A stretch of 64,000 bases of DNA from Thermoplasmata archaeon. Its GTDB lineage: Archaea; Thermoplasmatota; Thermoplasmata; Lutacidiplasmatales; UBA184. The position numbers and the translations under genes were made by a program. The stretch is from the NCBI GenBank assembly GCA_050011355.1, contig JBEKJG010000007.1:30756-94755 (forward strand). The letters are read 5' to 3'. The stretch's first letter is position 1; each line of letters starts with the position of its first letter. Of the stretch, positions 4,468 to 29,468 are shown in pieces. The notes under the pieces were generated by a model. The model was not told the origin of the DNA. It did no database searches and saw only the letters and a list, made by a program, of their open reading frames with translations.

Positions 4468-4542
4468 GGGCGCGTAGCCTAGTCTGGATAGGGCACCGGG
4501 TTCCTAACCCGGCGGTCGAGGGTTCAAATCCCTCCGCGCCCG
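4468..4542 (+). tRNA. tRNA-Arg(CCT)
   Basis: Acceptor stem GGGCGCG/CGCGCCC; anticodon arm CCGGG-TTCCTAA-CCCGG; T arm GAGGG-TTCAAAT-CCCTC; no encoded CCA, no intron. Confidence 0.96.
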
Positions 4543-4564
4543 CTACGTCATGGCCCGGCCCCTC

Positions 4565-9271: not shown

Positions 9272-9748
9272 CTACCCGACGCCGAAAGAAACCCGTAGGA
9301 GCGCAGCCAGGAAGTAGACAACAATCCCCACAATGGCCGCGACTCCGAGCGCCGCCAGCACGGGGAGCCAAGGATTCCGATCCGACTCGTCCTTCTCGCG
9401 TTCGCGTTCGTCGAGCCAGCAGAACATAGAGATGCCGGCAAACACGGCGGCCGCTCCTGCTATGGCTATCTCAGGCGCATCGAAGAGCAGGTGACCGAGA
9501 GGGTCCTCCTCGGGTTCGTACCGGTCCCGGTGGACTTTCCAGTGATCGTCCAGTTCGTAGGCATGCAGCGCGGGCGGCGCACGGTACTGGCCGATCGAGC
9601 CGGGGTGAGCAATCCATAGCGGCGTTCCAAGCACTGTCTCCGTGAATTCAGCGGGAAGCGTAGGCATCTCGACCTTTGGAACGGAGATTGATTGGCCAGG
9701 GGGCCGGCCATAGGCCCGCACCCTAATCCGGTCGAGCTCCTCCGTCAT
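9272..9748 (-). CDS. membrane protein with His/Asp-rich N-terminal domain
   Basis: QYR...LHAYE...VHRD..P..DPLGHL..DAPE, then two TM helices; ATGA-coupled to the RHH gene. Confidence 0.7.
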   Translation of the reverse strand: MTEELDRIRVRAYGRPPGQSISVPKVEMPTLPAEFTETVLGTPLWIAHPGSIGQYRAPPALHAYELDDHWKVHRDRYEPEEDPLGHLLFDAPEIAIAGAAAVFAGISMFCWLDEREREKDESDRNPWLPVLAALGVAAIVGIVVYFLAALLRVSFGVG

Positions 9749-9987
9749 GTTTGCGGCCCTTGCTGGAAACCTTGGATCAGCTCAAATTCCTTTGGGGGCG
9801 GCTGCGCCAGCATGATTTCGAGGTACAGCTCCGCCTGAGCGGAGATCTTTCGCCGTTCCCGCTCGGCCTTGGCCTTCAGTCGCTGGTAGAGGTCCTCAGG
9901 CAGGTGGAGTAAAACCTGCCGGCGACCAGCGATGACGAGGGCGTCAATGGGGTTGATAGGTATCGCTCGACGCGGTGGTGGAGACAT
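9745..9987 (-). CDS. ribbon-helix-helix (CopG/Arc-like) DNA-binding protein
   Basis: QVLLHLPEDLYQRLKAKAERERRKISAQAELYLE. Confidence 0.75.
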   Translation of the reverse strand: MSPPPRRAIPINPIDALVIAGRRQVLLHLPEDLYQRLKAKAERERRKISAQAELYLEIMLAQPPPKEFELIQGFQQGPQT

Positions 9988-10007
9988 ACGCAGGGTACAA
10001 TCACATG

Positions 10008-10014
10008 ATATTAA
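10008..10014 (-). promoter_or_regulatory. TATA box of the RHH operon
   Basis: TTAATAT on the minus strand ~21 nt upstream of the ATG at 9987, bracketed by a GGTAC...GTACC inverted pair (possible operator). Confidence 0.5.
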
Positions 10015-10070
10015 GCGATATCGTACCGTAGTAGGATTGTCTTCAAACCTCGCCCTCTAGCATCGACCCG

Positions 10071-10104
10071 CGCGCTGATCGCGGTCACCCCATCGGCCGC
10101 GCGC
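10071..10104 (+). repeat. palindromic island repeat, type A copy 1
   Basis: CGCGCTGATCGCGGTCACCCCATCGGCCGCGCGC; core CGCGGTC-N8-GGCCGCG. Confidence 0.85.
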
Positions 10105-10113
10105 GTCCCCTAG

Positions 10114-10689
10114 GTGGGGAGCGTGAAGCTTTGGGATGGCCCGCATTCGAGCCTAGGTTTGACCGAGACGCCAACCGGCCTTCTCATCATTCGCACGAAC
10201 AGGCTTACTCGAGGGTTCTGGTTCATTCAGGCTGGGGTTGCCATCGGTTTCCCGATCGCGGCTTTCGAAGTTACGAGCTTGGCAAGCCCTCGAACTTTGG
10301 GTGGGGTTCTGCCAGTCCTCGTCTCTCTGTTAGCAGCCTGCCTGACGGTTGATTTTCTAATAGTTGAGTTCTCGGATGTGCGGGCCGTTGAGATTGACGA
10401 TGACGGGGTCAGGTTTCGTTACCGATTTCACTCCGAGCGGGGACTGTGGATCGATCTCAGCCCGGGCGACATTCCGGTCCAGGCTGGGATGTGGACGATC
10501 AAACGAAGAACCCGGCGGGACAGCGGAATGCCAAGTAGGGGCCACGACGTAACAATCGAGCAGGCTCGGGCGATATTGAGCTACCCGCGATGTCCCAAGT
10601 GGCGACTCAATGCAAGTACAGCCCAGAAACTCGGGTTGAACGAATCGGTAGGGACCTATCTCTCCTCCACGCAGCCCGACTCAGGTTGA
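10114..10689 (+). CDS. 2-TM + PH-like membrane protein (paralogue 2)
   Basis: Two TMs, VRAVEIDDDGVRF...W.DL...GHDVTIEQARAILSYPRCPKW. Confidence 0.72.
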   Translation: MGSVKLWDGPHSSLGLTETPTGLLIIRTNRLTRGFWFIQAGVAIGFPIAAFEVTSLASPRTLGGVLPVLVSLLAACLTVDFLIVEFSDVRAVEIDDDGVRFRYRFHSERGLWIDLSPGDIPVQAGMWTIKRRTRRDSGMPSRGHDVTIEQARAILSYPRCPKWRLNASTAQKLGLNESVGTYLSSTQPDSG

Positions 10690-10724
10690 CTCCGACAGGG
10701 TATCGCTCGCTCGCGCACCGACCC

Positions 10725-10785
10725 CGCTCCTCGCGGTCAGTCCTCGATCCCACGCTTATTGCGGTCACCCTCATCGGCCGCGCGC
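10725..10785 (+). repeat. tandem type B + type A repeat copies
   Basis: CGCTCCTCGCGGTCAGTCCTCGATCC followed by CACGCTTATTGCGGTCACCCTCATCGGCCGCGCGC. Confidence 0.8.
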
Positions 10786-10813
10786 GCCCTCAGGAAACCG
10801 ACGGGGCGGCCGG

Positions 10814-10840
10814 CCTCTTCGCGGTGTGTCCTCGATCGCG
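10814..10840 (+). repeat. degenerate type B repeat copy
   Basis: CCTCTTCGCGGTGTGTCCTCGATCGCG vs 12316 GCTCATCGCGGTCCGTCCTCGACCGCG (22/27 identical). Confidence 0.6.
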
Positions 10841-11093
10841 GTGAGCCCGCCGGTCCCACCCCCGCTCGGCCTTCGCGGCGAGTGACGGAGACTTATCCCT
10901 CCCGGGAGTACTCTATTACTCCCCCCGCAGTGGATTCGATGAACGCTGAGCGCGGAAACCGTACCCTGATTTCAATAGCATCCACAAAGCTAGCTTCCGC
11001 CAAGCAACTGCAACCCTTGTCTTATCTCGACTTGGCCCTCGCCGGCACTGCCGATCTTTGTAGTGTTGGAGAATTCGTCGCCTCGCTCTAAGA

Positions 11094-11696
11094 ATGAGGG
11101 GGATGGCCGCTACGCGACTGGAAGCTCGCCAGTTCGATACTAGTCGAGAGAGCAATGCACTCGCTCAGTCACGTGCTTTCGGGCGTAACCTCGCGCTTGG
11201 TTTAACCATCATGTTCCTTATCATTGGAGCCGGTCTCAATCTTGCGATTCAAACCCCGTTAAAAAACCCTGGGTCAAGACCCTGGGTGGTGACCGGTGTC
11301 GCGGTTGCCGAACTTGTTTGGGTTACCGGGGCCATCGGCTGTTTGTGGCTCTACCTCGCACTTCGACCGGGGCCGGTACGAGTTACAGTTTCGGATGGGG
11401 GACTGCGCCTTGACTTCGCAACCGGAACTGCCGTACGATTGGGCTGGACCACGGGCGCCTGGCAGATCGAGGACTTCAGCGAGTACCCAACCATTGCGAG
11501 CCAGCCGGGAGGACCTTACTTCTTGAACGTCAACTGGGGTCGGCGCTTTACCATCTCGGAGGAGGCGATGGAAGGCGTGCTCGACCTGGCAAGATCTGTA
11601 GGCGTAAGCGTAGCGACCGTCCGTGGGAGCTCGGTTCTCTACGGATTCTCGCCAAACATTTACCGGCTTCGAGGCGGGCCCCCCGATCGCAAGTGA
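11094..11696 (+). CDS. 2-TM + PH-like membrane protein (paralogue 3)
   Basis: Two TMs, PGPVRVTVSDGGLRLDF...LGW...ISEEAMEGVLDLAR. Confidence 0.72.
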   Translation: MRGMAATRLEARQFDTSRESNALAQSRAFGRNLALGLTIMFLIIGAGLNLAIQTPLKNPGSRPWVVTGVAVAELVWVTGAIGCLWLYLALRPGPVRVTVSDGGLRLDFATGTAVRLGWTTGAWQIEDFSEYPTIASQPGGPYFLNVNWGRRFTISEEAMEGVLDLARSVGVSVATVRGSSVLYGFSPNIYRLRGGPPDRK

Positions 11697-11737
11697 AGTA
11701 GCGTCCTAGGCGCGGCCCGGGGCTCTCCCGAGACCAC

Positions 11738-11771
11738 CGCGCTGATCTCGGTCACCCCATCGGCCGCGCGC
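11738..11771 (+). repeat. palindromic island repeat, type A copy 3
   Basis: 33/34 identical to the copy at 10071. Confidence 0.88.
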
Positions 11772-11844
11772 TTCCATCTCCAGGCTGTTGGTCAGGGGCC
11801 AAACCATGCCAGTTCAAGACTACCGGGCTGACAAAAGTACCCGA

Positions 11845-12321
11845 TTAGGCCACGGACCAGCGACTACAGTACATCGAATGATAGCTGTTGATGAATGACC
11901 ACCAAAGGCCCGGCTCCTCGGACAATAGCAGATTCCGGATCTCAAGACACCCCTCGAGTTGTCGACTCGAGAAGATCATCAACTCTCGCATTCCCGCTTG
12001 GTCGAGTGGCTCACCGCTCGCGTGGAGATTCTCTAGGGGCCCGTTGCGGATACAGTTTGCGATGAGTGCGTTCGCCTCCACCCGGGCGCTTGGCCTCTCG
12101 GGCCGGAATCCGAACAGTGCGGATCCTGGGAGTACCTCTTTCCAGATCTTCCTCCCTCTCGGTCCAAGCGTTTGGTATCCTGCGCTCCGCCTGATTTGCA
12201 CGAAGCGGGTGACAGCCTTCTTCAGTTCAGGCGAAAGCTTGTCGATCACGGCGTGGATCTCAGCCGCGTCCGTCTTTCTTGGCACTTGATCCGGCCGCTT
12301 CGGTCTCCGAGTCGCGCTCAT
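11845..12321 (-). CDS. hypothetical protein (RNGPLENLHA motif)
   Basis: Start MSATRR lies inside the repeat at 12313; GAGGA SD in the repeat loop. Confidence 0.65.
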   Translation of the reverse strand: MSATRRPKRPDQVPRKTDAAEIHAVIDKLSPELKKAVTRFVQIRRSAGYQTLGPRGRKIWKEVLPGSALFGFRPERPSARVEANALIANCIRNGPLENLHASGEPLDQAGMRELMIFSSRQLEGCLEIRNLLLSEEPGLWWSFINSYHSMYCSRWSVA

Positions 12322-12345
12322 CGCGGTCCGTCCTCGACCGCGCGC
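12313..12345 (+). repeat. type B repeat copy containing a start codon
   Basis: CGCGCTCATCGCGGTCCGTCCTCGACCGCGCGC; perfect CGCGGTC-N7-GACCGCG. Confidence 0.8.
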
Positions 12346-12482
12346 GCCCCACATCAAGCCTGCGGGGCTCGGCCGTGGGTCCGGGGCGCAGAGCGGCCTC
12401 GCCCCGCGGCATGATGGGGGCACGGCCTCGGTCCTCGCTCGCATCGCTCGGCCCGAGGCCTGCGCGCTTGCTCCGCATCGAT

Positions 12483-12498
12483 GACCGCGATGAGCGCG
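12483..12498 (-). repeat. inverted half-copy of the repeat
   Basis: GACCGCGATGAGCGCG is the exact reverse complement of 12313-12328. Confidence 0.85.
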
Positions 12499-13176
12499 CA
12501 ACGCGCCTTCGGCAACGCCGCGACAACCGTTTCCATAGAATTGGCCCATGTCCGGGTTCCGGGCAGCGCCCGCACCTACGAGGTGCGCGACGTCCTCCGC
12601 GGGATGGGCCTCCGATGGGATCCCGTCTCCCACGCGCGGCATGGGACGCTCCCGGTTGACCAGGGCTCACGGCTCGTCCGTGAGCTGGGCCTTCGACCCC
12701 AGATCGTGCCAACGATCGAGGCGTTCGCCGCCCAGGCTAACCCGATCGTGGCCCAGAGGCACCCCACGTGGCCCCGCGGCCCAGTTCGGCCCCGAGTGCC
12801 TCACGACGGCTCCCGCACGCGTGCAGAGGCCCGCGTGGCGTTCCCGGACGCGGAGCAGGGCGACGAGGATGGGGTCGACTCGCGGCGGTTCAGCCTCCTG
12901 GAGATCACGAGCGGCCTCCCAGACGACTCGCGGGAGGCGGACGAGCGCGCCGCGGCGCGGAACCTGCGCGACCTGCGCGCCCGCGTGAAGGTGGCGCGGG
13001 CCGCGATTTCGGCCACACCTGGCGCGGATGAGATCCTCCGGCGCGACTGGCAGAAAGCCGCGAGGTTCTACGCGGCTTTCGAGATTACCGAGGCCCAGTT
13101 TCGGCATGGGGTCGCTGAACTGGCCCGCGGAGGCCCGGGTCCCTCAGCAGGTACGTCTCAGGGCGGAGGTTCATAA
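12490..13176 (+). CDS. DUF5710-like domain protein (mobile-element associated)
   Basis: TYEVRDVLRGMGLRWDP motif; start MSAQRA inside the inverted repeat (alternative ATG at 12481). Confidence 0.65.
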   Translation: MSAQRAFGNAATTVSIELAHVRVPGSARTYEVRDVLRGMGLRWDPVSHARHGTLPVDQGSRLVRELGLRPQIVPTIEAFAAQANPIVAQRHPTWPRGPVRPRVPHDGSRTRAEARVAFPDAEQGDEDGVDSRRFSLLEITSGLPDDSREADERAAARNLRDLRARVKVARAAISATPGADEILRRDWQKAARFYAAFEITEAQFRHGVAELARGGPGPSAGTSQGGGS

Positions 13177-13224
13177 CCAACCTCGCGGAGTACCCCGAAA
13201 GCCCCAAAATCGGTGGAAGTGCAT

Positions 13225-13838
13225 ATGGATGGAACCGGATCATCCGAATCGCAAACCGCCCAGACGAGCCCTCATGTCTCGTATCCGCCTCCGCGGGATG
13301 GTATGCATCCGTCTACAATTCTGGCCGTAATCCTCGCGGTAGTGCTCCTCGTGCTCGCCACGATTCTCGTCCTCAACCATGGAAGCCTGCCTATCGGCGG
13401 GTCCGGCTCAGCCGGCAATCCACCCATTGTTCTGATTAGCGCAATCAATCGGAACATTACCTACCTCGGCGGACTTCCGCACTACTTCGGCCCGACAGTC
13501 AACGACACCTGCCCATACTGCCCCGTGGGTGCGCAAGAGGGAGGGGCAATCCGCATCCCAATAGCGACGTGGACACCTCCGGCGAACCTGTCGTTCTGGG
13601 TGTTCCGAACGTGACCGGACCGTTTCCCGTGCTGGCGGGCGGATGCGGAGGGGCGGGGTGCACAATCCCTTGGGTCACCGTTGGGAGCGAGGAAACCTAC
13701 GTTCCCGCCCACACACTCGCTTCGATGACGCTTTTCGCAATCTTTCAACTCACGAAGCCCGTGAATGGGTACTACGCCGTGACGCTCAACGCCACGTTTT
13801 GCCCATCGTGGGTTTGCACCGAGGTTCCGCCAACCTAG
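13225..13838 (+). pseudogene. frameshifted membrane-anchored Cys-containing surface protein
   Basis: N-half (TM, CPYCP) in one frame and C-half (NVTGPFPV...NATFCPSWVC) in the next; one base missing at GTGTTC^CGAACGTG ~13606; could be an assembly error. Confidence 0.65.
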
Positions 13839-14190
13839 CGCACGAGACCTCCTCCCTCGCTTCGCGCGCGGTTCCGCCCCACGCCGGGCCGAGACGCTCG
13901 CAGACGATTGGCGGAAGGCGGCGTGGTTCTACTCACGGTCCTGGATTAGGGACGGGATGTTTCGATATGGGGCACACGAATGTTTGCTCTCCAGGGAACA
14001 GGATTGTTAGGCCTACTCTCGATTGGGGGACTATGTGTCTTGGTCGGGCTGGAGATGCTTTCGAACCTTAAGGAAAGATTGGAAAGATAGAGGGAAGCGT
14101 AACGAGTTGGTCGCAATTGAGCAAAAAAGCGCAGTCTCAGATTGGACGAAAAACAGAGAACTAAGTACTAGAGAAGGTTTCGGATGCACT

Positions 14191-18352: not shown

Positions 18353-21300
18353 CTAGCGTGGGGGCTGCCGGTGCATGTCCGCAACTTCCTCGTGAAACTC
18401 CTGAACCCAGCCCAGCGCTTCAGTCTTAGCTCGAGTGTACCGGTAACTCGTATACCCCCAGCCGGCTCCAAATGCCCCCACGACTGCGATAACCACGAGG
18501 ACGGCTTCAGTCACCCACAGAATGGAGCTGGACGCGACGGTTCCAGGTGGCGCCGCCGAGAAGACTGCCGTGACGGCGGGCGGACTAGACCCATTTATAG
18601 TGACGGTAGGAGTTGAAATCGCTACTCGGTAGCCGATCGGTCCGGAAGCGGATAGACCATATGTGCCATCGGGCAAATGAAGGGTAACTGAAGGCATCGT
18701 CGAGGGGGAAGAAACTACTACTTGGTTCGCCAGATTTGTCGCGCTCACCAACCATAGCCCTGATGTGACCAACCCTGATTCCGTGAATGTCACCGGGAAG
18801 GTGGCACTCGAGAAAGTGACGTTGACGATAACCGGCCCGCCCTCGACCTTGATAGAGCTAGCATAGCTCACCGAGTAGCCCCCGATTTGTCCAACTATCA
18901 CAGAGTACGTCCCGTTAGGTTCAGTAAAGGCGTTTGTAGTGGTCGTCGAGGTCGCCCACATTCCCCCCAATTGGCCGGCCCAAGATGTGGAGGTCGGGAG
19001 TCCTGTTTCAATCAGAGAGACTGGGTATACGGCACTGATTGACCCACTCGAGAAGGTGACATTGATCAGTATGGGGGCTCCAGCCACCAAGAACGAACCG
19101 GAGGCAGGGTCGGGACTATAATCAGCTACAGATCCGATAACGAACGAGTAAGTGCCGTTCGGCTCCGCAAAGGGCAGCAATTCCGTCGAGGACTCTTGTG
19201 AGGTCGAGTTTACGGTTGCGGACCAGGTCGCACCTGAAGGTAGTCCCAGCTCTCTAAAAATGACGGTGCTCAGTACCTTCGGTTTGCCTCCGTAGATGAT
19301 CGAGAGTGTCCCCTGATACTCATTGGAGACGTAGATGTCGCCATTCGAAGGGTCAAATGCATCGTACCACGGGCCACCCCCAACTCCAATGCGATCGATG
19401 ACCGAGTAGTTCGACATCGATATCACGGTGACATTGTCAGTCACGTTGTTTGTGACGAAGATGTCTCCGGTCGCATTGTCGAAAGCTATATCCGAGGAAT
19501 AGGAACCTTCGTCGCCAACTTGAATTGACGCGACTACTGAATTTGACACGTCAGAGATGACGTAAACCATGCCGGACCAGGGCGTTGGCACGACGACCTC
19601 GCCCGTAGCGCTATCGCAAGCCATTCCAACGCCCCAGAAGTTGGGGGGCGAGCTGGCCTCGGTGCCTGCCATCACTATTGTCGAAACCACCGAATTCGTA
19701 CTATCAGATATCACGCTAACATTGTTCGAGTTAGCGTACGCGACAAAAATCTCGTTGGCTACGTCGTCGTAAACGACAGATTCCGGGAAATCTCCCACTG
19801 GGATGGTCGCGATCACCGAGTCATTGAGATCCGAAATCACGGTCAGGCTAGCGGAGTGAAGATCGGCCACGAATACCTCGCTCCTTCCACCATCGTAGGC
19901 GATTCCAAACGGGGAGCCCGCGACCGGAATGTTAGTGACGACTTGGTCGGTCTGATCACTGATCACCGTGACATTGTCCGTGGCCGCATCGGAAACGAAC
20001 ATCTCACCTTTCCCGCTGTCATACGCCACTTGTTGGGGAATCTGTCCGGTCTCGACGTTAGTGATGATGGAGTTTGAGGTCGCGTTGATTACACTGTCCG
20101 CGCCGGATGGGTTTGCGAGGAGCAACTCTTGTGTCCGGCCGTCATACGCCAACCCCCAAGGTTCGCTGCCGACGGAAATGGTCGCGACAATGGTGTTGGA
20201 ACGATCCGCGATCACGCTCACGTTGTCGCTGGCACTGTTTGGTACGAAGATCTCACCCTTCGAACTATCATAGGTCGCGGCGAGGGGATCGGAGCCAACA
20301 GTGATGCTAGCAACCTCCGAATTGTCTGCGTCTGATACAGCTACTACCTTGTCCAACCCCACGGTCGCGAAGATCTCGCCCTTGGAACTATCGTAGGTCA
20401 AACCAGCGGCGCCGATTGGTATCTGCGCCACGATAGAATTGTTGGCGTTGGAAATCACGGATAGGGCATTTGCGGAAACGAATACCTCTCCCTTCGCACT
20501 GTCATATACCGCATCGTATGACCAGCCACTAACGTTCACCTTTGTAACAATGGAGTTGTTCGTATCCGAGATTACCTGCACGGTGTCTAACGCGCCGCAG
20601 GTGACGAAGATCTCGCCGCTACCGCTGTCGTAGGCCAATTCACCGGGTTGGCAACTGCCCACGGGGATTGATGCCACGACGGTGTCGTTTGTGTCGTTGA
20701 TGACAACAATACTGCTCCCTCCATCATTGGCGACGAAGACCTCCCCCATTGCATGGTCGTACACTATGCCCGACGATGGGCCCCCGATGGGGATGCTTGC
20801 AACAACCTTGTTGGTCAGGTCCGAGATTACGTTCACGTCGTTCGCACCGTTGTTTGACGCGAAGATCTCTCCCTTGCCGGTGTCGTACGCTAGTCCGTAG
20901 GGCGTGCCACTCGGGATTGTGGACACGACCGAGTTGGTCGCGTCCGAGATGACACTGATGTTGTTCGAATCACTGTCTCCCACGAAGATTTCACCGGTTA
21001 CGCTGTCATACACCGACGTGAACGGCCAGTTCCCGTTCCCGGCAGGGAAGTTCCCTGGAACGAGCGTGTTATTGAAGAGCACCAAAGTGTCAGTGACACG
21101 CAAGGGCTTCTGAGAGGTCGTCATCGCACGAGCCGGCAACAAATGCGACGAGGGCCGCAGCGAGAATGGGACCTCCGGGTATCGCCCTGGACTGGAACGA
21201 TTCGAAGGGCCCGAAGCGGGTAAGGCCGGAGATAGGCTCACGAGTAGAAGTAGCGCAGTCAAACCAACGACTCCCGCGAATCCTAAGATCCGGCGTGGGC

Positions 21301-21376
21301 GACACCGGTCGGACACAGCGAAGACTTTCAGTGAGTTACCTTGGGGCGCACAAGTGCTTGCGGGGGGCGACGCCAT
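18353..21376 (-). CDS. YVTN/YncE beta-propeller surface protein with thermopsin-like C-terminal repeats and TM anchor
   Basis: ~14 'YDS..GEIFV.N..SNNVSVI' repeats; three F.E.GLP.G..WS..NGTY units; C-terminal TM; start uncertain. Confidence 0.9.
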   Translation of the reverse strand: MASPPASTCAPQGNSLKVFAVSDRCRPRRILGFAGVVGLTALLLLVSLSPALPASGPSNRSSPGRYPEVPFSLRPSSHLLPARAMTTSQKPLRVTDTLVLFNNTLVPGNFPAGNGNWPFTSVYDSVTGEIFVGDSDSNNISVISDATNSVVSTIPSGTPYGLAYDTGKGEIFASNNGANDVNVISDLTNKVVASIPIGGPSSGIVYDHAMGEVFVANDGGSSIVVINDTNDTVVASIPVGSCQPGELAYDSGSGEIFVTCGALDTVQVISDTNNSIVTKVNVSGWSYDAVYDSAKGEVFVSANALSVISNANNSIVAQIPIGAAGLTYDSSKGEIFATVGLDKVVAVSDADNSEVASITVGSDPLAATYDSSKGEIFVPNSASDNVSVIADRSNTIVATISVGSEPWGLAYDGRTQELLLANPSGADSVINATSNSIITNVETGQIPQQVAYDSGKGEMFVSDAATDNVTVISDQTDQVVTNIPVAGSPFGIAYDGGRSEVFVADLHSASLTVISDLNDSVIATIPVGDFPESVVYDDVANEIFVAYANSNNVSVISDSTNSVVSTIVMAGTEASSPPNFWGVGMACDSATGEVVVPTPWSGMVYVISDVSNSVVASIQVGDEGSYSSDIAFDNATGDIFVTNNVTDNVTVISMSNYSVIDRIGVGGGPWYDAFDPSNGDIYVSNEYQGTLSIIYGGKPKVLSTVIFRELGLPSGATWSATVNSTSQESSTELLPFAEPNGTYSFVIGSVADYSPDPASGSFLVAGAPILINVTFSSGSISAVYPVSLIETGLPTSTSWAGQLGGMWATSTTTTNAFTEPNGTYSVIVGQIGGYSVSYASSIKVEGGPVIVNVTFSSATFPVTFTESGLVTSGLWLVSATNLANQVVVSSPSTMPSVTLHLPDGTYGLSASGPIGYRVAISTPTVTINGSSPPAVTAVFSAAPPGTVASSSILWVTEAVLVVIAVVGAFGAGWGYTSYRYTRAKTEALGWVQEFHEEVADMHRQPPR

Positions 21377-24530: not shown

Positions 24531-24591
24531 GACTCGAGTAATGAGGGGACAAGCCGGGATCCTCCAGCCGGGCTTCTGAGGTGCCCAATCG

Positions 24592-24610
24592 CGCGGGTCC
24601 TCCCCGCTCG
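24592..24610 (+). repeat. type C intergenic repeat copy 2
   Basis: 19/19 identical to 23909; followed by CTCCGCTCGCGGGTCCCC. Confidence 0.75.
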
Positions 24611-24638
24611 CTCCGCTCGCGGGTCCCCCCCGCGCGGT

Positions 24639-25157
24639 TCAACGGAGTTGCGTGTTCGTGCTGGGTAGGAGTCCGGCGCGCTTGAGCAAGCGCTTCGAGA
24701 GGGGCCACCGGGGGCACCTGGGGTCTTGGACTAATGCGCGGAACTGGGCGGGACTGAGAATGTGCCCGGGATGACTCACGCCCAACGGTTTCTTGACCGT
24801 CCTTCGAACCCATATCCCGTAGATTGAGGCAGAGGGCGGGTCCAGCTTTTCCCAGGGGATAGGCCGCAAGGATTTGGACGATCCGAACGCCACTCCCGAG
24901 TCAGAGAGTCGAATTCTCCCCGGTTCCATGGAGAGGCTGGTAGAAAGAATTCCAACGGCAAACATCGCAGTGAACAATAGGAAGAGCTCCCAAAACTGTC
25001 GGATTCCGCCTAGAATTACGGGAGCGCCCAGGAGCAGGGCGCCCGCTGCCCACGCCGCAGGAACGAGGGTACCGATTGCAATTACCGGCCCGATCCAAGC
25101 TAGCCGAGGGCTTTCGCGGGCCACCGATGTCTCCTCGCCCACATTTGGGTCAAGCAC
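24639..25157 (-). CDS. 2-TM + PH-like membrane protein (paralogue 7)
   Basis: Two TMs, PGRIRLSDSGV...IPWEKL...GHILSPAQFRALVQDPRCPRW. Confidence 0.72.
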   Translation of the reverse strand: MLDPNVGEETSVARESPRLAWIGPVIAIGTLVPAAWAAGALLLGAPVILGGIRQFWELFLLFTAMFAVGILSTSLSMEPGRIRLSDSGVAFGSSKSLRPIPWEKLDPPSASIYGIWVRRTVKKPLGVSHPGHILSPAQFRALVQDPRCPRWPLSKRLLKRAGLLPSTNTQLR

Positions 25158-26345: not shown

Positions 26346-29300
26346 ATGGCGGATCTTCACGTGCCGGTAGTCAATCACCCCGCGTCTCCGGCGGCGACCT
26401 GCTTAGCCTTCGCCGTCGTCGCCGCGATGCTGGTGTCGGCGATACCGTTCGCGGCAGAAAGTCCCGCTCCCCCGGCCTCGCCTCCTCCCTCCCCGGTCGC
26501 CGTGAGTTCCGTCCGGTCGACGGGACCGCCCCCGAGTCTTCCTGCCCTACAGAGCACGCTCTCCGTGAACGCTTCCTCCGTCAATCTGTCGAGTTTGTTC
26601 TGGGGCGCGACGGTGAACAATGAGGTCCGAATGTTTCGGGGGGAGACGGCCGCCGTCAACGCCACCCCGGCGCGGGTGTTGGTCTGGCCGGGCGCAATGG
26701 CGGGGGAGGATTACGACCCGCTCACGGATACCCACTACGACACGTACACCGGAGTACCGATCCGCGCGCTCACGGACGAGGCCCAGTTCGTCCAACTCTG
26801 CCGGGCGACCCACTGCACGGCCGTGGTACAGGTCCCGGCAGAGATCGACGATCCGCAGATCGCCGAAGCGATCGTAAACTACACGGAGGTGAACCTGAGT
26901 TTCACCCCGGCGTACTGGATGATCGGGAACGAGCCCGAGCTGTGGGAGCACTGGCAGGTCCCATGGAACGAATGGGAGTCCACGTACTCGAACGGCCCGA
27001 CCCCGACGCAGTTCGGTCAGGAGGTGGTCACGTATGTCCAGGCGATCCGGGCGGTGGACCCTACGACCCCCATTCTGGGATTGCCCGCGTCGGGCTGCAC
27101 CTGCGGCTACTGGACGTTCCCCCAGTGGATTTCTGGCGTGCTCAACGTCACCGGGGACCGGATCCAGGCGGTCGCGTTCCATGAGTACCCCGCCGGTTGG
27201 CTCGGCACCGGCGACGGCAGTCTCCTCGACTTCTACCAGACGATCCAGGGGGCGGCGAGCATCCCCGTCCGGATCGCCGCGGCGCGCGCCGCCGTCGAGT
27301 CGTCCTGTCCCGGGTGCAACGTGTCCGTCTGGGTCAGCGAACTTGGTTCGGCGCTTTCTTGGTCGGCCTACGGGCAGTACGCGATCGGCTTTTCCGGTGC
27401 CCTCAGTCTCGGGTCCCAGCTCACCCAGGCGATGGACGACAACGTGTCGAACGTCGACCTGTTCGCGACGGAACTGGCTACGACCAACTCCTGGTTCAGC
27501 CCGACCGGCCAAGCCCGTCCGGATTACCAGGCCTACACGGAAGTGTTCGACCACCTCGGGACGGAGGCGTTTTCGGTCAACATGAGCGGGTTGAATCACA
27601 CCGTCTACGCGATCGACACCATCGCGCCCCACGACCAGGGGCGCCGCGACCTGCTGGTCCTGAATGACAACATAACGAACTCGGTAGAATTCTCCCCCCA
27701 GTTTGCCGAGAGGCTGGGGGACGTGCCGGTACTCGCGCTCAGCTGGAACGGCTCGATCCATTCGACCGAATCCAACGGGACGACCTGGGTGGAGCCGTAC
27801 ACTCCGAACCCCGTTCCGACCGAGTTCCCGGACGGGTTACCCGCGAACTACACCCTGCCCCCTCAGAGCTTGGTCCTGTTCGAGTCTTATCCCAACCCCG
27901 CGTCGTACGTCCAGGTCCGGGAGCACGGGGTTCCGAACGGAACGGCCTGGTACCTCCAGCTGGGAGCCAGGTTTTACGAAACGAACGCGAACAACGTCTC
28001 CCTGCTCGTGCCGACCGGGTCGTACGCGATCGGCTCCCTCGGGATCCCCTTGCCCATCGATGGGCATGAACGGAACCCGACCGAGCAGCTCGGCCCGTTC
28101 CTGAGCTCCCCATTCTCGGTCGGAGGGCCCTACGCCAACGCTTCCGTGAACTTCGTCGTGCAATGGCGGGTCAACGCCACGGCGTCCCCGGCGGGGAGCG
28201 GGACCGTGACGCCGGGGGCCGTCTGGTGGAACGATAGCGAGCCGCTGAACCTCTCCGTCGTGGCCCCTGCGCCCGGGTACGCGTTTGCCGGGTGGAGCGG
28301 CTGGGGTCCGGGGGCGGCGAACGGCACCGCTCGCACGATCCGGGTCGACCCCACCGGCGGGATCACGGAGCGGGCGCGCTTCGTCATCGGGGATCCGGTG
28401 ACGATACTCGAAGGAGGTCTCCCGGACAACACGACATGGTCGGTCACGGTCCGTGGATTCACCACGAACTCGACCGGGGGCGTCCTGATGCTCTATGAGC
28501 CGGTTGGGTCGTATGGGTACAGCGTTAGCCCGGTACCCGGCTACCGAGCGGTCCCAAAAGACGGAGGTTTCTTGGTGAATTCGTATGGTGCCTCCGTCTC
28601 GGTCCGATTCGTCGCGCTCACGCCACCCGCCCCCAAGTACCCGGTCACGTTCCACGTCTCCGGACTCCCGGCCGCGTGGACCGTTTCGATCGAGGTCCGC
28701 GGGACCAACGAGGTGGGGGGCATGGCCGGAGCGACATTCCTGCTATCGAACGGGACCTACGCGTACCGATTGGGGTACGAGCCGGGTTACCACGCCGTCG
28801 CCGGTATCAAGACCTTCGAGGTCGCCGGTGGACCGCTCACCGTGAATGTGGAGTTCGTGCCGACGGTCTACCGGGTCCTGTGGACGCCGATCGGGTCTCG
28901 CGCCTGGATGAATTGGAGCGTCGCAGTCAATGGGACGACCTACTGGGGGGGCGGGTCCGCCGTCTCGACCACCTTGGAGAACGGGACCTACCCCTACCGT
29001 ATCGACGTGCCTTCCAACTTCTCGAGCACTCCCCCTTCCGGGTTGCTCCGGATCGATGGTTCGGCGGCCCGGCTCTCGCCGGTCTTCAGCCTTCTGGAGT
29101 TCGCCGCGAGGTTCGCCGTGGGTGGACCCGAACCCTCGGGACCATGGACGGTTCGTCTCGGGAACTCGACGCTTCCGGGCACGAGCAATGGAACGTCGTT
29201 CCTGGAGGCGAACGGCACGTACACCTTCGACGTGCATCCGCCGTCGGGGGAGTTCGCAGTTCCCTCGCACGGGAACCTGACCGTGGCAGGTACCGTCCCT

Positions 29301-29468
29301 CCGCAGGTTATCCAGTTCTACCCTACCTCCGAGAAACCCTCCGACGCGCTGATCGCCCGCCTCAGCGCCGGGGTGGCGTGGGTCGTGGTCTGGCTCGGCG
29401 GGGCGGGCGTGCTGGCGTACGTAGTCCTCGGCGGAATTTGGCATCGGACCCGGCACCAGAGGAACTAA
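26346..29468 (+). CDS. membrane-anchored clan GH-A glycoside hydrolase with surface repeats
   Basis: Signal peptide, WMIGNEP, VAFHEYP, VWVSELG; GLP..T.WSV/NGTY repeats; C-terminal TM. Confidence 0.85.
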   Translation: MADLHVPVVNHPASPAATCLAFAVVAAMLVSAIPFAAESPAPPASPPPSPVAVSSVRSTGPPPSLPALQSTLSVNASSVNLSSLFWGATVNNEVRMFRGETAAVNATPARVLVWPGAMAGEDYDPLTDTHYDTYTGVPIRALTDEAQFVQLCRATHCTAVVQVPAEIDDPQIAEAIVNYTEVNLSFTPAYWMIGNEPELWEHWQVPWNEWESTYSNGPTPTQFGQEVVTYVQAIRAVDPTTPILGLPASGCTCGYWTFPQWISGVLNVTGDRIQAVAFHEYPAGWLGTGDGSLLDFYQTIQGAASIPVRIAAARAAVESSCPGCNVSVWVSELGSALSWSAYGQYAIGFSGALSLGSQLTQAMDDNVSNVDLFATELATTNSWFSPTGQARPDYQAYTEVFDHLGTEAFSVNMSGLNHTVYAIDTIAPHDQGRRDLLVLNDNITNSVEFSPQFAERLGDVPVLALSWNGSIHSTESNGTTWVEPYTPNPVPTEFPDGLPANYTLPPQSLVLFESYPNPASYVQVREHGVPNGTAWYLQLGARFYETNANNVSLLVPTGSYAIGSLGIPLPIDGHERNPTEQLGPFLSSPFSVGGPYANASVNFVVQWRVNATASPAGSGTVTPGAVWWNDSEPLNLSVVAPAPGYAFAGWSGWGPGAANGTARTIRVDPTGGITERARFVIGDPVTILEGGLPDNTTWSVTVRGFTTNSTGGVLMLYEPVGSYGYSVSPVPGYRAVPKDGGFLVNSYGASVSVRFVALTPPAPKYPVTFHVSGLPAAWTVSIEVRGTNEVGGMAGATFLLSNGTYAYRLGYEPGYHAVAGIKTFEVAGGPLTVNVEFVPTVYRVLWTPIGSRAWMNWSVAVNGTTYWGGGSAVSTTLENGTYPYRIDVPSNFSSTPPSGLLRIDGSAARLSPVFSLLEFAARFAVGGPEPSGPWTVRLGNSTLPGTSNGTSFLEANGTYTFDVHPPSGEFAVPSHGNLTVAGTVPPQVIQFYPTSEKPSDALIARLSAGVAWVVVWLGGAGVLAYVVLGGIWHRTRHQRN

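Follow-up and report, generated by a model that had tools for sequence, protein, structure and literature searches.

We analyzed a 64,000-nucleotide (nt) stretch of a metagenome-assembled genome of a Thermoplasmata archaeon (contig JBEKJG010000007.1; hereafter, the window), in which short repeats, termed cores, bracket single genes. On balance, we consider that these repeats are probably joint sites and that they belong to a conserved array of gene cassettes, which resides on integrative, plasmid-like elements in a Thermoplasmata family of peat and soil. At one end, the array is tied to a palindromic leader and to the gene at 12481-13176, both conserved; the gene is here called the platform gene, and each repeat is an inverted copy of the first bases of that gene. 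Both features had been missed in an earlier reading of the window made from its letters alone (the sequence-only reading).

The region 10062-12365 of the window was split into three single-gene units by four same-strand cores of ~35 nt and additional partial copies. The 34-mers at 10071-10104 and 11738-11771 were identical at 33/34 positions (97.06%), and the third main copy, at ~10750-10786, aligned with the 34-mer at 96% over 26 nt and carried an additional base. One repeat family (87%) comprised the variants at 10727, 10815 and 12317, and an inverted 16-nt piece at 12483-12498 was the perfect complement of 12313-12328. The sequence-only reading had described copies at 10071, 10751 and 11738, with variants, as the bounds of single-gene units; this description was borne out, as the copies formed a same-strand array with three open reading frames (ORFs) between them. 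The composite joint of a partial core and a core, as at 10725-10804, recurred in other arrays. We built a profile from six core copies, four in the window and two on contig C20 of the same genome. The four window cores scored E-values of 2e-13 to 1e-11, and all six seed copies scored ≤1e-11. The rest of the 2.1-Mb genome, with a guanine-cytosine (GC) content of 68%, gave only three more weak profile matches (contigs C12, 5e-5; C6, 0.004; C64, 0.02), and a genome-wide search for the exact 34-mer with up to six substitutions returned two matches, both inside the window, indicating that the motif is not scattered through this genome.

The core pattern (≤2 mismatches) was found in 61 of 180 family genomes and in 53 of 149 genus genomes, whereas a reversed-pattern control gave four matches in 3 of the 180 family genomes. 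The 180-genome tallies include one unpublished genome (G155), which was positive only in two integrase counts and on which no conclusion rests. In twelve loci chosen for clustered core matches, all 89 profile matches (89/89) shared a single strand within their locus; a locus had at most 13 copies, at a spacing of mostly 0.36-2.6 kb (357-2556 nt). Cores in five long-contig genomes formed a few same-strand arrays and some single copies. Genome G153 had 31 core-pattern matches. The sequence-only reading had named a genome-wide scatter of the motif, of the repetitive extragenic palindromic (REP) kind, as the outcome that would speak against it; the cores were not scattered in this way. The consensus of 88 copies was CGCGCGCTGATTGCGGTC, followed by 3-5 variable bases, CATCGGCCGCGCGC and a variable tail that was often the 5' half of a hairpin. 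Both core arms were near invariant; therefore, covariation cannot test a hairpin inside the core.

The short arm-spacer-arm palindrome, which the sequence-only reading had taken as the defining feature of the repeats, is the weakest part of the original observation. CGCGGTC-N8-GRCCGCG (≤1 mismatch) gave eight rows in the window against 0.76 expected, and only 3/8 of these lay within the array. When folded as single-stranded DNA, cores 1-3 gave z-scores of -0.98, +0.20 and -0.56 on the top strand and -0.70, +0.83 and +0.10 on the bottom strand relative to shuffles; core 4 alone folded better than shuffles (z about -2.2). The 7-bp arms were thus a matter of near-invariant sequence, with no covarying or stable hairpin.

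The position of the cores relative to the platform gene was assessed in two sets of loci. The first comprised the 20 best full-length platform genes on long contigs, for two of which (G165 and G163) a nearby core had been known beforehand. A same-strand core ended ≤250 nt upstream of the platform gene in 19/20 of these genome loci and lay within 5 kb downstream in 0/20, and the number of cores upstream ranged from 1 to 11. The second set comprised 22 metagenome loci chosen by platform protein match alone; a core lay ≤250 nt upstream of the gene in 18/22, and in total 55 same-strand cores were upstream and none downstream, with no opposite-strand core upstream. These polarity counts are not fully independent because some metagenome loci duplicate each other or earlier loci (L059 = L037, L063 = L042, L082 = L084/L085). 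A shufflon-like inversion switch was rejected, since opposite-strand cores were absent upstream of the platform genes in both sets (20 genome and 22 metagenome loci). The sole inverted copies were the arm at the platform ATG and an inverted core downstream in one element (L082/L084). Across the 180 genomes, the repeat was present in 61, the platform gene in 59 and both in 36.

The platform protein had 475 database homologs, all unnamed or "hypothetical", and the organisms that were named were Thermoplasmata. It showed no sequence match in Pfam, NCBIfam or PDB. The predicted model (predicted local distance difference test [pLDDT] 76) contained a small beta-alpha-beta-beta-alpha N-domain and a helical C-half. 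VIA-align placed generic ferredoxin-like folds at the top (best Z 5.5), with Cas2, Lrp RAM domains and propeptides also among the matches, and a match to RpnA-S (Z 4.7, 46 residues) was within noise. The best ESM Atlas score, 0.76 to DUF3560, is a lead only. A virus origin was rejected; the protein had a single weak IMG/VR match, with 32% identity over 70 amino acids.

Several observations concern the platform gene itself. Copies of the part coding for its C-terminal domain recurred downstream of platform genes (e.g., L025 15102-15437 and 16957-17292), often with in-frame stops, and other genes came after each copy. The near-identical strain pair L059/G171 diverged inside the 3' part of the platform gene, and the 3' end may be a second insertion hot spot. 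Short platform forms (L025 13128-13628) kept the MTAISA start and the C-terminal domain and had lost the N-terminal ferredoxin-like domain. ARAGORN called a 97-nt "tRNA-Arg(ACG)" inside a platform gene (L036 5485-5581), which is probably a false call on GC-rich structured sequence.

Between the last core and the platform gene lay a conserved stretch of ~150-190 nt, the leader. An alignment of 18 loci gave one multi-branch fold for it, in which the last core paired arm for arm with an inverted copy holding the platform ATG and the first five codons; each array core is therefore a direct copy of the left arm of the palindrome. Folded as single-stranded DNA, the window leader reached -74 kcal/mol (z -5.28), and 0/200 shuffles were as good. 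In the 18-locus alignment, 96.1% of 1006 cells were paired, and 27/56 pairs had changed on both sides. The both-side changes amounted to 116 cells, compared with 31.8 ± 4.0 in shuffles (0/500 reached 116) and 2-16 cells when the partners were slid, and G-U occurred in only five of the 1006 cells. The closing stem covaried even where the platform N-terminus changed (MTAMSA, MTAISA, MSAIRA and MTALSA), indicating selection on DNA symmetry and not on the peptide. Because the covariation was almost purely Watson-Crick, and an RNA tolerating G-U would differ, the alignment suggests that the leader acts as DNA, either as a cruciform or as a single strand, and not as RNA. Internal cores often, though not always, shared the arm variant of the platform of their own locus. 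Even if the cores are transfer or control signals, the support for the leader as a structured DNA element, one not described before, is strong.

One platform locus lacked the last core and the long hairpin (L040; G171:C1 ~977-981 kb). The left half of its leader was replaced by unrelated lower-GC sequence, and the second hairpin and the inverted arm were kept.

We compared units between loci using 22 alignments that avoided platform genes (≥80% identity, ≥300 nt). Alignment end points lay ≤30 nt from a core in 22/76 cases, compared with 3.5 ± 1.9 at random (maximum 11 in 1000 trials). One stretch (L024 12362-13078 and L025 11244-11948) was 81.7% identical with both bounding cores included and unrelated flanks. 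A GNAT unit and a cupin unit, which adjoin in locus L043 (genus g7), had 80% and 86% copies in two arrays of G153 (genus g1), with cores on both sides of each copy. Core tails traveled with the gene 3' of the core; therefore, a unit carries its own core on the side away from the platform. One related unit pair was inverted relative to the cores. The window stretch was present in at least 16 peat and wetland runs, of which one (X14) contained an 818-nt contig (depth ~5) that followed 10013-10778 with one difference and then continued from 12339 onward. This joint connects core 2 to core 4 through 11 shared bases and skips 1560 nt, i.e., units 2 and 3; the same run also held contigs of the full form. 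A metagenome scan for near-identical window copies returned none, the best match having 81% protein identity.

Another X14 contig (depth ~85, from a more abundant relative) joined 13001 to 13883, with 26 bases on the shorter side. In it, 881 nt between the C-terminal part of the platform gene and the downstream paralog were missing and 25 other bases stood in their place; the contig was not used as array evidence.

The genes between cores were mostly without relatives: 169/217 in-array ORFs had no homolog among 622 ORFs of 34 loci, and a Pfam scan of 148 ORFs of eight array-bearing loci (flanks included) gave few matches. The in-array Pfam matches included GNAT, cupin, glyoxalase, alpha/beta hydrolase, a zeta-like kinase, propeller proteins and a TetR+ABC set; the recognizable cargo is of the accessory type. 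Calling the longest ORF per interval, which is crude, placed the gene on the strand of the repeat in 35/71 intervals and on the other strand in 36/71. The possibility that cores are portable gene starts was rejected: a reverse-strand ATG ORF of ≥60 amino acids began in 51/171 cores and 31/171 control windows, and at ≥100 amino acids the counts were 26 and 20 (n = 171 each), an excess too weak for a rule.

Contig C20 of the same genome carried a related element with two cores and patches collinear with the window, and in addition insertion sequence (IS) transposases, an HTH/ImmA-type pair, an FtsK/TrwB-like ATPase and an adjoining tyrosine integrase. A 1072-amino-acid FtsK/TrwB-like ATPase and a divergent tyrosine integrase formed the far end of intact elements (C20 19765-22980 and 23105-24226); the Pfam support for the ATPase was weak (E 5e-5 for FtsK_SpoIIIE and TrwB with the C20 protein). 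In at least 15 loci, the ATPase lay 2-23 kb downstream of the platform gene on the opposite strand. It was present in 36/180 genomes, 29/36 of which had the platform gene, compared with 59/180 overall. The integrase stood beside the ATPase in C20 and G030 and within 9 kb of it in six more elements. The window element is thus a decayed copy: the window retains only a remnant of the ATPase, and its contig has no integrase. In the genome of the window, PF00589 proteins occurred on C6 (two) and C20 only and none on the contig of the window; the 311-amino-acid protein on C6 was an Xer-family recombinase (E 1.6e-39) not specific to arrays, and the C6-type integrase family occurred in 78/180 genomes. 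The genome, which is 93.8% complete, contained no serine recombinase and no Y1 transposase. The proposal of the sequence-only reading that a recombinase acts in trans or was lost fits these data: no recombinase is encoded in the window, and of the ATPase that adjoins a tyrosine integrase in intact relatives only a remnant is left.

On the reading of the repeats as joint sites, the cores would serve as recombination sites for the insertion and deletion of circular or excised units, and the last core with the leader would be the resident entry site, a counterpart of attI. The enzyme might be either the platform protein or the tyrosine integrase of the element, which would act in trans on the decayed copy in the window. 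A more specific proposal, which we put forward tentatively and regard as rather doubtful, is a new archaeal gene-capture platform that arose independently of integrons, in which the leader is the entry site, the platform protein is a dedicated recombination or targeting factor (alone or with an integrase), the cores are recombination sites, and single genes in either direction are collected and traded by conjugative-plasmid-like elements of soil Thermoplasmata. The integron-like capture and shuffling proposed by the sequence-only reading was upheld in its architecture, with different genes in relatives, homology that stops at the repeats and one core-core contig; the integron parts were not found. 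Of the two outcomes that this reading had named for a check, the flanking of variable, mostly single genes by core matches was seen in related genomes, and co-occurrence with one recombinase was not.

A number of results weigh against the repeats being joint sites of a capture system. Exchange of units at the cores, as read from sequence comparison, could result from homologous recombination between the 35-60-nt repeats. The joint between cores 2 and 4 is one contig from one run, with 33 bases on its shorter side. The internal cores form no stable hairpins, and a greedy ORF set placed 114/217 in-array ORFs in the direction of the cores and 103/217 in the opposite direction, unlike integrons. 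Foldseek found no recombinase fold for the platform model (best E 0.099). No single integrase family tracked the arrays in the 180 genomes, and the C20-type integrase did not qualify by co-occurrence as a dedicated enzyme (21/180 genomes, 7/21 with the platform gene). The repeat without the gene was found in 25 genomes and the gene without the repeat in 23, many of these genomes being incomplete. Finally, small two-core arrays were identical in 3/3 near-identical strain pairs (L059/L037, L063/L042 and L082/L084; 98.6-100%), and turnover is therefore not fast. The sequence-only reading had regarded a fixed gene order with no junction reads as contrary to its proposal; on this point, the X14 junction contig speaks for the proposal and the three unchanged pairs against it.

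Of the other explanations, the one that we consider unlikely, though less so than the rest, is that the cores are polar DNA-handling signals of the element and that units swap as a by-product of homologous recombination. Possible roles include guiding the FtsK/TrwB-like motor, priming, or one-direction single-strand signals from an origin-like leader. The strict same-strand orientation of the cores towards the leader, whatever the gene direction, would suit such signals, as would a leader that is a DNA-level multi-hairpin with almost no G-U and a platform gene tightly linked to the ATPase, an enzyme whose Pfam support is itself weak (E 5e-5). However, the cores are confined to the array side of the leader and number one per gene-sized unit, instead of being distributed over the element, with 0/20 loci having one within 5 kb downstream; homology ends at cores far above chance; and the deletion joint of 11-12 identical bases is short for homologous recombination.

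Lower again in probability is control of foreign cargo, with the cores as operator or silencer sites through which the platform protein would keep the units under common regulation. Such sites would be comparable to the repressor sites that are scattered in repeated copies through some phage genomes. A core conserved in sequence and not in structure, a helical C-terminal half of the platform protein and an inverted copy on the start of the platform gene, which would suit self-regulation, agree with this explanation, and the core arm type often matches the inverted arm of the local platform (e.g., the rare CTCAGC type in L052 and L053). Yet the cores stand in no fixed place with respect to where genes start or end (114 vs 103 ORFs overall, 5 vs 6 among the 11 in-array genes with Pfam support, same and opposite direction, respectively), and the restriction of arrays to the upstream side of the platform gene and the end of homology at cores are left unexplained. 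We regard it as very improbable that the cores are selfish REP-like elements, or miniature inverted-repeat transposable elements (MITEs), in the intergenic spaces of the island. They are GC-rich, partly palindromic, intergenic and, in some genomes, multi-copy (31 in G153), but the genome of the window has ~9 copies, 6 in two loci, near-complete genomes hold them as same-strand arrays, the 93.8% complete genome has no Y1 (RAYT/IS200-type) transposase, internal cores are not stable hairpins, and cores keep a fixed relation to the platform gene.

The array of joint sites was compared with known systems. It shares several features with integrons, in particular sedentary chromosomal integrons, and with clusters of attC sites lacking integron-integrases (CALINs): the site array is polar and on one strand, a unit mostly contains a single accessory or unknown gene, one end is occupied by a fixed platform, each unit has its site at the platform-distal end, the cargo includes GNAT, cupin, glyoxalase and toxin-like genes, and units are common to different arrays and genera with breaks at the sites. 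The pattern of same-strand sites with mostly single ORFs in an array polar to the platform is thus an integron feature that we did find. In contrast, the genome of the window has no IntI (best TIGR02249 score 78.9 bits on contig C6; cut-off 265), an RYYYAAC...GTTRRRY pair within 80 nt occurred in 0/171 cores and 1/171 random windows, the thermoplasmatal cores are conserved in sequence and not in fold, with no stable hairpins, the array genes lie in both directions, and the platform is a conserved gene behind a ~190-nt palindrome. The array is therefore not an integron, as it lacks IntI, attC ends and stable hairpin sites and has mixed gene orientation; the sequence-only reading had already set the repeats apart from attC by their ends. 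The archaeal integrons described in PMC9668308 are classical IntI/attC systems only, with generally co-oriented ORFs, and the main text of that paper never mentions Thermoplasmat*, a listing in its data tables being possible (PMC9668308).

The 28-bp Xer sites consist of two 11-bp imperfect inverted arms and a 6-bp spacer, as given in PMC2958812. The inverted arms of the cores are 6-7 bp (GCGGTC / GGCCGC) and 7-9 nt apart, and a core read as 11-8-11 has 6/11 symmetric positions by hand count. An Xer-family recombinase is present in the genome (C6); the tyrosine recombinase core-site geometry proposed by the sequence-only reading does not correspond to the 11-6-11 layout in that source (PMC2958812). 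The dif modules of Acinetobacter plasmids, bounded by pdif (XerC/XerD) sites in the accounts of PMC6449649 and PMC13141974, are similar in that accessory-gene modules on a plasmid-type element are shuffled between replicons at short conserved recombinase-type sites. No dedicated recombinase adjoins the modules in either case. pdif sites alternate in orientation, whereas all cores here point in one direction and a leader palindrome and platform gene are present.

PeSL elements, described as promoter/stem-loop cassettes of T4-type phages (PMC2839356, PMC4122927), likewise flank single unknown genes in hyperplastic regions with short repeated motifs that mark break points of insertion, deletion and swap. 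Here, core direction is independent of gene direction and a single conserved locus anchors the arrays, whereas PeSLs combine promoter and terminator and follow the direction of the gene. Tycheposons are presented as a tandem accretion of integrative elements at tRNA 3' ends (bioRxiv 10.1101/2020.12.28.424599), and there, too, direct repeats that copy part of a resident anchor pile up beside the anchor as cargo is added. By contrast, the thermoplasmatal arrays have an anchor other than a tRNA and units that consist of one gene and carry no integrase, and the repeat copies the left arm of a palindrome over a protein gene start, inverted to the gene. Compared with REP elements, bacterial interspersed mosaic elements (BIMEs) or MITEs, the cores number ~9 in 2.1 Mb, with 6/9 in two loci, and form clustered same-strand arrays; PF01797 (Y1, RAYT/IS200) had no match in the genome of the window (93.8% complete). 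The intervals of 357-2556 nt hold whole genes and not the ~30-40-nt spacers of CRISPR, as the sequence-only reading had concluded; cas genes were not searched for.

Table 1. Coordinates of the array, leader, platform gene and neighboring features in the window.
Feature	Position	Strand	Evidence and remarks
tRNA-Arg(CCT), left edge of lower-GC island, outside the repeat system	4468-4543	+	ARAGORN, Rfam
Small ribbon-helix-helix-like gene next to the far array end	9745-9987	-	Weak Pfam FitA-like_RHH and RHH_5 matches, E 0.005-0.008, below cut-off; RNA contig over 9818-10048
Core 1 with tail (34-mer 10071-10104)	10062-10123	+	nhmmer E 2.2e-12; 33/34 identical to core 3
Unit 1 gene, 191 amino acids	10114-10689	+	ORF list; 29% identity to distant paralog 24639-25157
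Partial core, left arm of CTCCTC type, directly before core 2	10725-10749	+	Repeat family, 87%
Core 2 with tail	10745-10804	+	nhmmer E 2.2e-13; left side of deletion joint at 10778
Two overlapping degenerate partial cores	10814-10853	+	Repeat-finder families
Unit 2 gene, 200 amino acids	11094-11696	+	ORF list
Core 3 with tail	11730-11791	+	nhmmer E 1.7e-12
Unit 3 gene, 159 amino acids	11845-12322	-	ATG inside reverse complement of core 4; translation reads on from ...AMSATRRP
Core 4, last core and left arm of leader palindrome	12309-12365	+	nhmmer E 9.6e-12; right side of deletion joint at 12339
Leader palindrome	12313-12498	.	Single-stranded DNA fold and covariation across 18 loci
Leader closing stem	12313-12330 with 12482-12498		Extended by 12334-12337/12478-12481 and 12340-12345/12462-12467
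Leader long hairpin	12346-12368 with 12401-12421		
Leader second hairpin	12424-12438 with 12446-12460		
Leader small hairpin, 3 bp	12469-12471 with 12475-12477		
Platform gene, 231 amino acids, conserved	12481-13176	+	First 6 codons are the inverted core
Paralog of platform C-terminal domain (similar part 13807-13971)	13643-14071	+	47% over 55 amino acids to C20 platform gene
FtsK/TrwB-like ATPase remnant, 173 amino acids	25523-26044	-	38.8% identity over 80 amino acids to C20 19852-20091

The surroundings of the array were also assessed (Table 1). Between ~5 and ~31 kb of the window, the GC content fell from about 0.68 to 0.52-0.65, and most ORFs of this stretch had no assigned family; the three unit genes had no Pfam or NCBIfam family match. 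The sequence-only reading had placed the system next to tRNA-Arg. The tRNA-Arg(CCT) gene lay 5.5 kb from the array, its region had no match of ≥12 nt to any core, and a tRNA-derived att repeat was rejected, as the 3' end of the tRNA had no copy in the window or the cores; a role of the tRNA thus found no support. An Rfam scan of the window gave no family other than tRNA. In one metatranscriptome run, three short contigs matched the window (9818-10048, 10606-10766 and 13296-13515); none lay over the leader, though contigs cannot show absence.

A second GC-rich repeat of 46 nt occurred at 24590-24635 of the window, at 18677-18722 and 19367 of C20 and at 3843 of contig C59. The copies in the window island and C20 were identical, and two further copies had one mismatch; this repeat may represent a further joint or hairpin element belonging to the mobile elements that carry the cores. 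The proteins of ~1000 amino acids encoded at 18353-21376 and 26346-29468 belong to a very large propeller/NHL-type secreted paralog family with dozens of copies genome-wide.

A literature search found no prior description of the array in the open literature, with subscription journals and supplementary tables outside its reach. To our knowledge, no well-understood machinery other than that of integrons accumulates single promoterless genes at one site. The thermoplasmatal arrays resemble integrons in outward behavior and are built from components unrelated to those of integrons, namely a site defined by sequence, a large palindrome of DNA and a platform gene without a known family. About one in three of 180 genomes from an uncultured and abundant archaeal family of peat and soil contains array cores, on elements that also bear a DNA-pumping ATPase and an integrase. 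If the proposed mechanism is true, the arrays would represent a second, independent solution to gene capture and a new protein-DNA recognition pair, and they would offer a testable handle on how these archaea acquire the many unknown genes that they carry.

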